64,000 nt of DNA. Source: Escherichia coli. GTDB lineage: Bacteria; Pseudomonadota; Gammaproteobacteria; Enterobacterales; Enterobacteriaceae. The notes below the pieces were generated by a model. That model was not told where the DNA came from, ran no database searches, and saw only the letters and a list, made by a program, of their open reading frames with translations. The stretch is from assembly GCF_001677475.2 (NCBI RefSeq), contig NZ_CP015229.1; one strand, written 5' to 3'. Position numbers and translations under genes: made by a program. Below are positions 12,473 through 15,004 of the stretch, piece after piece (the first letter of the stretch is position 1; each line of letters begins with the position of its first letter).

Positions 12473-15004
12473 ATGGCCGGGAATGACCGCGAGCCAATTG
12501 GACGCAAAGGGAAACCGACGCGTCCGGTCAAACAAAAGGTAAGCCGTCGTCGTTACGAAGATGACGATTACGACGATTATGATGACTATGAGGATGAAGA
12601 ACCGATGCCGCGCAAAGGTAAGGGCAAAGGCAAAGGGCGTAAGCCTCGTGGCAAACGCGGCTGGCTATGGCTGCTGTTAAAACTGGCTATCGTTTTTGCC
12701 GTGCTGATCGCCATTTACGGCGTTTATCTCGATCAAAAAATTCGCAGCCGCATTGATGGCAAGGTCTGGCAACTGCCTGCGGCAGTTTATGGCCGAATGG
12801 TCAACCTTGAGCCAGATATGACCATCAGCAAGAACGAGATGGTGAAGCTGCTGGAGGCAACACAGTATCGTCAGGTGTCGAAAATGACCCGTCCTGGCGA
12901 ATTTACCGTGCAGGCCAACAGCATTGAGATGATTCGCCGTCCGTTTGATTTCCCGGACAGTAAAGAAGGGCAGGTGCGTGCGCGTCTGACCTTTGATGGC
13001 GATCATCTGGCGACGATCGTCAATATGGAGAACAACCGTCAGTTCGGTTTCTTCCGTCTTGATCCGCGTCTGATCACCATGATCTCCTCGCCAAACGGTG
13101 AGCAGCGTTTGTTTGTGCCGCGCAGTGGTTTCCCTGATTTGCTGGTGGATACTTTGCTGGCGACAGAAGACCGCCATTTCTACGAGCATGATGGGATCAG
13201 TCTCTACTCCATCGGACGTGCGGTGCTGGCAAACCTGACCGCAGGTCGCACGGTGCAGGGTGCGAGTACGCTGACGCAACAGCTGGTGAAAAACCTGTTC
13301 CTCTCCAGCGAGCGCTCTTACTGGCGTAAAGCGAATGAAGCCTACATGGCGCTGATCATGGACGCGCGTTACAGCAAAGACCGTATTCTTGAGCTGTATA
13401 TGAACGAGGTGTATCTCGGTCAGAGCGGCGACAACGAAATCCGCGGCTTCCCGCTGGCGAGCTTGTATTACTTTGGTCGCCCGGTAGAAGAATTGAGCCT
13501 CGATCAGCAGGCGCTGTTAGTCGGTATGGTGAAAGGGGCGTCCATCTACAACCCGTGGCGTAACCCGAAACTGGCGCTGGAGCGACGTAATCTGGTGCTG
13601 CGTTTGCTACAACAACAGCAGATTATCGATGGTGAACTGTATGAAATGCTCAGCGCGCGTCCTCTGGGCGTACAGCCGCGCGGTGGGGTAATCTCTCCAC
13701 AGCCAGCCTTTATGCAACTGGTGCGTCAGGAGCTGCAGGCGAAATTAGGCGATAAGGTAAAAGATCTCTCCGGCGTGAAGATCTTCACTACCTTTGACTC
13801 GGTGGCCCAGGACGCGGCAGAAAAAGCCGCCGTGGAAGGCATTCCGGCACTGAAGAAACAGCGTAAGCTGAGCGATCTGGAAACCGCGATTGTGGTCGTC
13901 GACCGCTTTAGTGGTGAAGTTCGTGCGATGGTCGGAGGTTCTGAGCCGCAGTTTGCGGGCTACAACCGTGCGATGCAGGCGCGTCGTTCGATTGGTTCCC
14001 TTGCAAAACCAGCGACTTATCTGACTGCCTTAAGCCAGCCGAAAATCTATCGCCTGAACACGTGGATTGCGGATGCGCCAATCGCGCTGCGTCAGCCGAA
14101 TGGCCAGGTCTGGTCACCGCAGAACGATGATCGTCGTTATAGCGAAAGTGGCAGAGTGATGCTGGTGGATGCGTTGACCCGTTCGATGAACGTGCCGACG
14201 GTAAATCTGGGGATGGCGCTGGGGCTGCCTGCGGTTACGGAGACCTGGATCAAACTGGGCGTGCCGAAAGATCAGTTGCATCCGGTTCCGGCGATGCTGC
14301 TGGGGGCGTTGAACTTAACGCCAATCGAAGTGGCGCAGGCATTCCAGACCATCGCCAGCGGCGGTAACCGTGCACCGCTTTCTGCGCTGCGTTCGGTAAT
14401 CGCGGAAGATGGCAAAGTGCTGTATCAGAGCTTCCCGCAGGCGGAACGCGCGGTTCCGGCGCAGGCGGCGTATCTGACACTATGGACCATGCAGCAGGTT
14501 GTACAACGCGGTACGGGTCGTCAGCTTGGGGCGAAATACCCGAACCTGCATCTGGCAGGGAAAACAGGGACTACCAACAATAACGTAGATACCTGGTTTG
14601 CGGGCATTGACGGCAGCACGGTGACCATCACCTGGGTAGGCCGTGATAACAACCAGCCGACCAAACTGTATGGAGCCAGCGGGGCAATGTCGATTTATCA
14701 GCGTTATCTGGCTAACCAGACGCCAACACCGCTGAATCTTGTTCCGCCAGAAGATATTGCAGATATGGGCGTGGACTACGACGGCAACTTTGTTTGCAGC
14801 GGTGGCATGCGTGTCTTGCCGGTCTGGACCAGCGATCCGCAATCGCTATGCCAGCAGAGTGAGATGCAGCAGCAGCCGTCAGGCAATCCGTTTGATCAGT
14901 CTTCTCAGCCGCAGCAACAGCCGCAACAGCAACCTGCTCAGCAAGAGCAGAAAGACAGCGACGGTGTAGCCGGTTGGATCAAGGATATGTTTGGTAGTAA
15001 TTAA
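12473..15004 (+). CDS. mrcB: penicillin-binding protein 1B (bifunctional transglycosylase/transpeptidase)
   Basis: [14 protein letters not shown]... N-terminus, glycosyltransferase motif [10 protein letters not shown], transpeptidase SIGSLAKP and KTGTT; Gln-rich C-tail. Confidence 0.96.

Follow-up and report, generated by a model that had tools for sequence, protein, structure and literature searches.

The window (64,000 nt of an Escherichia coli genome) contains mrcB (ponB), read on the + strand from an ATG at 12473 to a stop at 15004, as given by the ORF list and its translation. The 843-aa product has the domain order of PBP1b, with PF14812 (PBP1_TM, residues 1-78), PF14814 (UB2H, 112-196), PF00912 (Transgly, GT51, 208-378), and PF00905 (Transpeptidase, 472-713), all above the Pfam gathering score. 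The PDB PBP1b chains 3vma, 3fwl, and 5fgz match residues 52-803 with E = 0, and the alignment shows 3 substitutions. Solved PBP1b structures start at about residue 52-57, and the PDB constructs all lack residues 1 to ~51-56. RefSeq annotates mrcB under every match, with hrpB and fhuA on either side; the synteny hrpB-mrcB-fhuA is found in the window as well, where the flanking ORFs lie at 9905-12379 and 15224-17467 (RefSeq feature names under a 7.5-kb match). The assignment to mrcB/PBP1b, initially made from the sequence without any database search, is borne out by the Pfam domains, the PDB chains at E = 0, and the RefSeq annotation.

K-12 PBP1b is the product of the same gene, with the same hrpB-mrcB-fhuA synteny and domain order, and its N-terminal peptide, KG tract, and membrane helix are identical to those of the window. 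The two mrcB genes nevertheless differ at 73 of 2,508 sites, and the K-12 protein counts 844 aa with DDDD, versus 843 aa with DDD in the window. Another difference is a ~100-bp GC-rich palindromic repeat, present in the K-12 hrpB-mrcB gap and absent from that of the window. Scanning 12300-12700 for promoters and terminators yielded none, and the 93-nt intergenic leader folds no better than shuffles (z = -0.82). The features of the gene and of the tail encoded by its first codons are the following:

12462..12465, + strand: GGAG, SD-like, for the alpha start ATG at 12473-12475 (sequence reading; anti-SD duplex -6.6 kcal/mol)
12473..15004, + strand: mrcB (ponB) CDS, PBP1b alpha isoform, 843 aa (ORF translation, Pfam, PDB matches, RefSeq annotation)
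12473..12514, + strand: codons 1-14, alpha-only N-terminal peptide, reported to bind FtsA (identity to the K-12 peptide in PMC13423804)
12515..12553, + strand: first basic block, codons 15-27 (translation and coordinates)
12557..12601, + strand: acidic D/E/Y tract, codons 29-43 (E29-E43), alpha-only, with a polymorphic GAT site and imperfect 9-bp DDY units
12590..12610, + strand: internal initiation region GAGGATGAAGAACCGATGCCG, with SD-like GAGGA at 12590-12594, a 10-nt spacer, the gamma ATG at 12605-12607, and the next codon
12611..12661, + strand: basic KG tract, codons 47-63, present in both isoforms and adjoining the membrane (TRF period 6; alignments)
12662..12730, + strand: transmembrane helix, codons 64-86 (translation; Pfam PBP1_TM over residues 1-78)

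The 40 nt located 5' of the alpha ATG are identical in 4/4 Escherichia species compared. The first 14 residues of the window, including R6, P8, I9, G10, and R11, are those of the K-12 peptide, and the 107 Enterobacterales species representatives among the matches listed share a conserved DREPIGRKG. The acidic tract is encoded by GAA GAT GAC GAT TAC GAC GAT TAT GAT GAC TAT GAG GAT GAA GAA and is separated from the Lys/Gly/Arg-rich tract by Pro-Met-Pro. The [D/E/Y]-only run is 16 residues long, the runner-up among the 33,524 residues of stop-free stretches in the six frames of the window being 5; from amino-acid composition, about 1.5e-7 runs of such length would be expected per proteome. For [K/R/G], too, the longest run of the window lies here, with 11 residues.

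Both peptide strings quoted in the sequence-only reading are exact. It had placed an acidic repeat at 12565-12605; the tract exists, but its real coordinates (12557-12601) lie about 5-8 nt away. It had also described the segment as encoded by near-triplet repeats. The acidic tract does have a period-3 look, because its codon composition is GAY/GAR/TAY, but Tandem Repeats Finder calls no repeat in it, and the 17-nt repeat copies returned by a repeat search are only 76% identical. The program calls the KG tract only (12612-12636, period 6, 4.2 copies, 78% matches, score 36). The true tandem units of the tail are two-copy repeats of 3, 6, and 9 bp only. Those located at indel sites, with two copies each, are GAT GAT in K-12, reduced to a single GAT (12566-12568) in the window; (GGCAAA)x2, found at 12622-12633 inside the KG tract and lacking one copy in the KG3 alleles; and the 9-bp pair GATGATTAC + GACGATTAT, sharing GATTA.

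The production of alpha and gamma isoforms from alternative starts, to which the sequence-only reading had referred, is established by Kato 1984 and Broome-Smith 1985, by PMC13423804, which cites both, and by Ribo-RET in two species, E. coli and Salmonella. In K-12, translation of gamma begins 46 codons downstream, at Met46 (PMC13423804), and the two isoforms give western blot bands of 94.2 and 88.9 kDa (PMC13423804). A Ribo-RET peak occurs at the mrcB internal start in E. coli, both K-12 and BL21 (Meydan et al., bioRxiv 10.1101/520783), and in Salmonella (PMC11005335). The short gamma form arising from an internal start codon is, thus, already described. In the same 2026 study, midcell enrichment is seen for alpha but not for gamma and is lost with an R6E change; PBP1b is brought to the division site by the alpha-only extension, probably via FtsA, an interaction called ‘likely’ by the authors themselves and needing structural validation (PMC13423804). 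FtsA-linked recruitment is, like the two isoforms and internal initiation, known from the literature, which also comprises cytoplasmic-domain deletion mutants of PBP1b (Chalut 2001, as summarised in PMC13423804).

In the window, an in-frame ATG occupies the K-12 Met46 position, with the SD-like GAGGA (12590-12594) upstream and the same GAGGATGAAGAACCGATG context as in K-12. An internal Met had been anticipated at about 12608; the codon exists, but at 12605-12607, and it is residue 45 here versus 46 in K-12 because one Asp is missing. The anti-SD duplex energy is -6.1 kcal/mol for this gamma start, versus -6.6 kcal/mol for the annotated alpha start. Nevertheless, the SD-like matches of species without the internal Met are equal or stronger (mean -7.7 vs -5.7 kcal/mol), and resemblance to an SD sequence, taken alone, therefore follows from the Glu/Asp codons. 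SD strength was dropped as support for the gamma start for this reason, and codon invariance was used instead. The codons GAG GAT GAA GAA CCG ATG CCG (GAGGATGAAGAACCGATGCCG) are identical in 19-20 of the 20 species sharing the protein block, whereas the codons of a control block, likewise invariant in protein sequence, differ by 0.44 on average in pairwise comparisons. On sequence grounds, this codon freeze is compatible with selection on the gamma initiation region. An effect of the length alleles described below on mRNA folding at the gamma ATG was also considered and rejected, as the predicted folding is near-identical in all of them (-10.4 to -11.1 kcal/mol).

Similar arrangements are found elsewhere. 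Salmonella Typhimurium MrcB likewise exists as a long and a short proteoform, the latter produced from an in-frame internal start detected by Ribo-RET, and its extension is described as disordered, with a basic then an acidic stretch, as in the window (PMC11005335). The 21 nt around its internal ATG are identical to those of the window; the extension counts 42 aa (PMC11005335), with a shorter acidic tract (DDDYDDDYEDEE) and three KG units. The infB and clpB genes (Meydan et al., bioRxiv 10.1101/520783) likewise give two proteins differing only at the N-terminus, from an internal start with its own SD-like sequence within the coding region. In contrast with infB and clpB, the alpha-only part of mrcB is a 44-residue disordered tail that changes localisation, and not a folded domain.

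The sequence-only reading had also suggested that the repeat length could vary between strains. The strain comparison set beforehand as a check confirmed this, as the length is not invariant among 5,424 complete E. coli genomes. The census covered the first 200 nt of mrcB and took its allele counts from BLAST identity bands, with direct reading of 24 loci only, and the genome collection is biased towards clinical lineages. The alleles, by length of this segment, are:

200 nt: D4/KG4, the K-12 allele (DDDD, four KG), 5,097 genomes
197 nt: D3/KG4, the window allele (one Asp fewer, 843 aa), 178 + 4 = 182 genomes
194 nt: D4/KG3 (one KG unit fewer), 132 genomes
191 nt: D3/KG3 (without both units), 11 genomes
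191 nt: 9-bp DDY deletion, 1 genome (CFS3292)

One genome of the 5,424 has no assignment to a length allele. The five alleles differ by 3, 6, and 9 bp; the K-12 allele is present in 94% of the genomes, and 327 of 5,424 (~6%) are not of K-12 length. No allele longer than that of K-12 was found in this collection. A KG5 expansion, sought with a synthetic query, was rejected, the best match (97.1%) being the K-12 length with a 6-nt gap. In the alignments, every indel is in frame and corresponds to one copy of a two-copy 3-, 6-, or 9-bp repeat, and no out-of-frame allele occurs in the 24 sequences read. Four indel types are observed in 20 full genes, all of them in the acidic, KG, or C-terminal Gln/Pro tracts, which make up about 8% of the gene. 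The length variation is small and mostly lineage-restricted, with nothing pointing to hypermutability. In the literature searched, the coverage of which is incomplete, no earlier description of the N-terminal length alleles was found, but only an unrelated C-terminal frameshift and an intergenic repeat.

The plausibility of a slippage site, raised in the sequence-only reading, is consistent with the data, because each indel is one unit of a two-copy tandem repeat; such slippage must be rare, since 94% of the genomes share one allele. Rare slippage in a tolerant linker fits these observations, rather than a hypervariable or phase-variable site. Simple-sequence contingency loci of Haemophilus, Neisseria, and Campylobacter harbor many perfect copies of 1-7-bp units and switch frame at a high rate. 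Their length changes by slipped-strand mispairing at coding tandem repeats offer a likeness to mrcB, in which repetitive codons adjoin the internal start and strains differ in length. However, mrcB has only two, imperfect, copies per repeat unit and only in-frame changes (no out-of-frame allele among the 24 sequences read), one allele dominates (94% of 5,424 genomes) among five in total, none of them expanded, and the predicted local mRNA folding at the gamma start does not differ between alleles (-10.4 to -11.1 kcal/mol). Tandem Repeats Finder scores the KG tract at only 36 and the acidic tract not at all, and a hypermutable locus that would switch or tune PBP1b expression by phase variation is effectively refuted. 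Errors of sequencing or assembly in a region of low complexity are just as implausible a source of the length differences. Although the CFS3292 allele is a singleton, and a database protein (P0001) on a 1-kb contig carries an implausible 36-residue duplication with many substitutions, independent complete assemblies number 182 for D3, 132 for KG3, and 11 for D3/KG3, every variant keeps the reading frame, the variants co-vary with the SNP haplotypes around them, and the protein-level allele of CFS3292 is also present in a separate Escherichia species representative (L100).

Spread by homologous recombination of old, single-origin length alleles, the repeat structure being incidental, is a possible, if doubtful, alternative. 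Most alleles are lineage-restricted: the D3/KG4 strains, the window apart, form one clade of the mrcB tree, and 11/11 D3/KG3 genomes share an identical haplotype. The mrcB and hrpB trees conflict for the window, MCJCHV-1, and 2012C-4502, which indicates recombination in the region, and KG3 may be ancestral, since it is the state found in Salmonella, Citrobacter, Enterobacter, and two non-coli Escherichia species. Nevertheless, CFS3292 has 0 SNPs in mrcB compared to W3110, and its private 9-bp deletion on this K-12-identical haplotype indicates a new mutation. The D3 haplotype of the window is nearer to O157 and K-12 (D4) than to other D3 strains, and each indel coincides exactly with one repeat unit. 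In the haplotype tree, where only 20 sequences were placed and recombination is evident, the 6-bp KG indel stands on at least two haplotype backgrounds, ~95 SNPs apart: KG3 strains stand among KG4 strains in a B2-like clade (5 SNPs separate A37 and HM670), and KG3 is also found in the unrelated EC1515/ABW_A19 clade, the KG4 precursor haplotype of which was predicted, then found in 4 genomes, and is thus extant.

Two side observations concern these origins. The imperfection of the repeats, with two copies only, is a point against the slippage account, and the interleaving of KG3 and KG4 inside one clade could reflect recombination instead of repeated mutation.

The segment is very probably a disordered cytoplasmic tail of PBP1b, made of charge blocks, with two starts, a tolerated spacer, and occasional slippage of one unit. 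PBP1b, a bifunctional peptidoglycan synthase, carries there an intrinsically disordered tail of alternating charge, ordered as a conserved peptide (1-14), a basic block (15-27), the acidic D/E/Y tract (29-43), Pro-Met-Pro, and the Lys/Gly/Arg-rich tract (47-63), the latter presumably lying against the inner membrane face, ahead of the single membrane helix. One mRNA would give two proteins, alpha from the ATG at 12473 and gamma from the in-frame ATG at 12605, and the last acidic codons, GAG GAT GAA GAA, may double as the purine-rich ribosome-binding region for gamma. The N-terminal peptide, only present in alpha, would bring PBP1b to the site of division, as published, with FtsA as the probable binding partner. 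The KG tract may supply the positive-inside charge for the type II membrane anchor. Through the two-copy tandem units present in the tracts (GAT, GGCAAA, and the 9-bp Asp-Asp-Tyr unit), replication slippage could occasionally remove or add one unit in frame, and the resulting length alleles, which would be neutral, may persist in lineages because the linker tolerates them.

The most likely role of the acidic tract would be that of a flexible charge-balancing spacer between the N-terminal peptide and the membrane, with a loosely constrained exact length. Among the matches listed, it spans 4-36 aa (median 16) in 107 Enterobacterales species representatives, and 88 distinct acidic-tract sequences are found in 108 tails. 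A specific functional motif, either an electrostatic latch or a docking site for a further partner, is an unlikely alternative to this spacer, not only in view of this diversity, but also because healthy lineages carry in-frame losses of 1 or 3 residues, and because the recruitment phenotype described in PMC13423804 traces to R6 and the first residues instead of the acidic tract. In its latch version, the acidic tract would fold back on the KG tract or on the first basic block and might, thereby, tune membrane association or the exposure of the FtsA-binding peptide; if a motif did exist, stabilising selection would act on tract length, and the alleles might not be functionally equivalent. It is favored by the basic-acidic-basic order and the regularly spaced Tyr/Phe of the acidic block (every 3-4 positions), both kept in 107/107 species representatives among the matches listed, by a whole-tail net charge that stays positive in most species (median +5, among the matches listed), and by a tract that is nearly invariant within Escherichia, even at synonymous sites. 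As a separate observation, a kept acidic block with regular Tyr/Phe could mean a specific interaction, and not a passive linker.

PBP1b, an antibiotic target, ranks among the major cell-wall synthases, and its alpha-only tail has been given a role in reinforcing the division site (2026 study, PMC13423804). For anyone who mutates or recodes the region, it is useful to know that natural strains accommodate small in-frame changes in the length of the repeat tracts and that the codons surrounding the internal start stay frozen from genus to genus. In about 6% of sequenced E. coli, the tail is unlike that of K-12, and residue numbering is shifted by one to three. Current understanding is otherwise unchanged, as the results confirm and quantify a real but ordinary, already known feature.

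Synonymous conservation extends further than the internal start region. Between K-12 and three other Escherichia species, pS is 0.03-0.08 for codons 1-67, versus 0.29-0.32 for the rest of the gene. This is the lowest-pS window of mrcB (P about 1e-3 to 2e-5), and the synonymous divergence of the first 200 nt is four- to tenfold below that of the rest of mrcB. Within E. coli, 2 SNP columns are observed there in 20 sequences, versus ~17 expected (P = 3e-6). Because low synonymous divergence spans all 67 codons, beyond the surroundings of the two starts, an extra constraint is possible. One rather improbable form of it would be an additional RNA-level element within this stretch (for instance a structure, an sRNA target, or a ribosome stand-by site) setting the alpha:gamma ratio, in which case the lineage-specific D3 and KG3 alleles could tune the fortification of the division site by PBP1b. 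The Escherichia-wide synonymous freeze over these 200 nt may exceed what two initiation regions explain.

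The mrcB gene, which encodes PBP1b, lies between hrpB and fhuA, and its 5′ end specifies an acidic tract, an internal ATG, a basic tract of KG units, and a membrane helix.

Features of the mrcB locus (open reading frames of the window; parts of the tail computed from the translation)
9905-12379, + strand, hrpB, open reading frame
12473-15004, + strand, mrcB, open reading frame with an 843-aa product
12557-12601, + strand, mrcB acidic tract
12605-12607, + strand, mrcB internal ATG
12611-12661, + strand, mrcB basic KG tract
12662-12730, + strand, mrcB membrane helix
15224-17467, + strand, fhuA, open reading frame

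The product shows the PBP1b domain order in Pfam (PBP1_TM, UB2H, Transgly, Transpeptidase) and a PDB search matches it at E = 0 to the solved chains of E. coli PBP1b. As all matched chains begin at about residue 52-57, the tail is absent from every solved structure. The sequence-only reading had singled out this charged, repeat-encoded segment; its overall observation is confirmed and its interpretation supported, with exact peptide strings and coordinates that were wrong by a few bases. The charged tail is already known as a feature, and the allele census and synonymous freeze reported here are modest descriptive additions.

The acidic tract is beyond chance by composition: its D/E/Y run spans 16 residues, the next longest in the window's 33,524 stop-free residues spans 5, and the compositional expectation is exceeded by about seven orders of magnitude. 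The underlying DNA is only weakly repetitive. TRF reports the KG tract alone (period 6, score 36), and a repeat search finds 17-nt copies of 76% identity in the acidic tract. The actual tandem units are GAT GAT (in K-12), (GGCAAA)x2, and two imperfect 9-bp Asp-Asp-Tyr units.

When the window was aligned to four E. coli genomes differing in match length, two in-frame indels emerged that are independent of each other: a 3-bp GAT (DDDD or DDD, hereafter D4 and D3) and a 6-bp GGCAAA (four or three KG units, KG4 and KG3). All four combinations were found. Alleles were counted using the first ~200 nt of each as the query and retaining genomes at ≥99% identity, a band below which a 3-nt gap drops a match.

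Length alleles of mrcB in complete E. coli genomes (length of the first-200-nt segment; identity-band counts)
D4/KG4 (K-12), 200 nt, 5,097 genomes
D3/KG4 (window), 197 nt, 178 genomes
D4/KG3, 194 nt, 132 genomes
D3/KG3, 191 nt, 11 genomes

A fifth allele, a singleton in CFS3292, has one Asp-Asp-Tyr unit (9 bp) deleted between GATTA repeats. For five leftover genomes, band arithmetic predicted a D3/KG4 haplotype carrying both SNPs of the D3/KG3 clade, which a synthetic query found in four genomes, so that 5,423 of the 5,424 genomes were assigned to a length allele. A synthetic query for a KG5 allele found none in the complete E. coli genomes. Since five length alleles were counted among 5,424 genomes, tract length is not invariant, a variability that the sequence-only reading had considered plausible. 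The variation is small, always in frame, and each change is a one-unit contraction relative to K-12; the window's own allele is a minority one (3.4%). The 5′ region of mrcB went unmatched in two of 5,426 genomes, and three matches fall on plasmid-labelled records.

The origin of these alleles was examined in 19 genomes picked to span them, using ~5 kb of sequence surrounding the site in each. All indels across the 2.5-kb mrcB lie within three low-complexity tracts, the third being a C-terminal Gln/Pro tract in which PCN033 lacks 9 bp. In SNP-based trees, CFS3292 equals W3110 except for its 9-bp deletion, which is therefore recent. KG3 and KG4 strains are interleaved in a B2-like clade; a KG4 precursor survives for the distant EC1515/ABW_A19 clade, which carries KG3 as well; and the haplotype of the window's D3 allele is closer to O157 and K-12 than to other D3 strains. 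Taken together, these observations favour more than one origin of the same unit change, recurrence being likely but not proven. The hrpB and mrcB trees conflict for several strains, which indicates that recombination is also at work.

Beyond the species, a degenerate nucleotide pattern encoding DREPIGRKG matched at least 120 loci in species-representative genomes, yielding 107 usable tails. Among the matches listed, all tails keep the order of N-terminal peptide, basic, acidic, and basic blocks, then membrane helix. Their acidic blocks are 4-36 residues long (median 16; 88 distinct sequences), and in 69 of 108 tails a Met directly follows the block. E. albertii carries the K-12 allele and two other Escherichia species representatives carry KG3 among these matches. 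As KG3 is likewise found in Salmonella, Citrobacter, and Enterobacter, KG4 may be derived.

PBP1b is made as a full-length alpha and a shorter gamma isoform, the latter from the internal ATG. That statement of the sequence-only reading is correct and already documented, both starts being known from the K-12 literature and Ribo-RET; the N-terminal proteomics it proposed has in effect been carried out in related strains. That there are two starts and that the first six residues matter is stated in the passages of PMC13423804 that cite Kato 1984, Broome-Smith 1985, and Chalut 2001. At the division site only alpha shows enrichment and higher activity, and an AlphaFold screen together with R6E mutants indicated FtsA as its recruiter (PMC13423804). 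Ribo-RET detected the internal start in E. coli (Meydan et al., bioRxiv 10.1101/520783) and Salmonella, whose MrcB has a 42-aa extension described as disordered, basic then acidic (PMC11005335).

A GAGGA motif (12590-12594, Glu-Asp codons) sits 10 nt upstream of the internal ATG. Its Shine-Dalgarno likeness is uninformative as evidence for the gamma start, because species without the internal Met score equally well or better. The codons GAG GAT GAA GAA CCG ATG CCG are identical in 19-20 of the 20 species having the same protein block, against a mean pairwise codon difference of 0.44 in a protein-invariant control block of the same species. Codons 1-67 form the lowest synonymous-divergence window of mrcB (0.03-0.08 vs 0.29-0.32 elsewhere, K-12 against E. 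albertii and two other Escherichia species). Across 20 E. coli sequences, the first 200 nt (12473-12672) hold 2 SNP columns vs ~17 expected (P = 3e-6), and the 40 nt upstream of the mrcB ATG (12433-12472) are identical across the genus. This freeze is consistent with selection acting on two translation initiation regions that the tail encodes; the constraint reaches beyond both start sites, and a further RNA-level element is possible.

The segment is best explained as a disordered cytoplasmic tail with charge blocks, in which the acidic tract most likely acts as an alpha-only spacer whose 3′ codons double as the gamma ribosome-binding region, and the KG tract as a positive-inside anchor common to both isoforms. 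The in-frame alleles would arise by rare slippage at two-copy units and persist because linker length is presumably loosely constrained. Readings of the tract as a contingency locus and of the alleles as assembly artefacts were rejected; that the acidic tract acts in some specific electrostatic or binding capacity, and not as a spacer, is possible but less likely.

The Gln/Pro-rich tract (14852-14950, codons 794-826) contains PCN033's deletion, in frame between CAGCC repeats, and an ISS phage-coevolution experiment enriched for a Q817 frameshift there. Its sub-threshold Pfam match to FtsA_C (21.9 bits, cut-off 27.4) is probably compositional. In P0001 (NCBI, 1,028-nt contig), a PBP1b N-terminal fragment shows a tandem duplication of residues 3-38 joined inside the acidic tract (...|GNDREPIG...), followed by many substitutions; this is probably a low-quality assembly, and the duplication could be real and repeat-mediated.

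At ≥99%, none of the 5,424 complete E. coli genomes matches the window over 9905-17467 or 20000-44000. The best matches reach 97.9% over hrpB-mrcB-fhuA and 98.7% across the fully colinear 24-kb hemL-glnD stretch. Compared with E. albertii and two further species representatives of Escherichia, mrcB of the window shows 92-93% identity. The lineage therefore looks E. coli-like and unrepresented among RefSeq complete E. coli genomes. The 93-nt hrpB-mrcB intergenic region (12380-12472) lacks a GC-rich palindromic repeat (~100-115 bp, arms GGGAGAGGG...CCCTCTCCC), as do B2-like and D3 strains. K-12, O157, and CFS3292 have this repeat, the EC1515/ABW_A19 clade has a different version, and PMC3045373 enters it as the assembly-breaking 'hrpB // mrcB repeat'. 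Folding of the window's intergenic region is not significant overall; a remnant 8-bp hairpin, TTCTTCTG...CAGAAGAA, is present at ~12405-12428.
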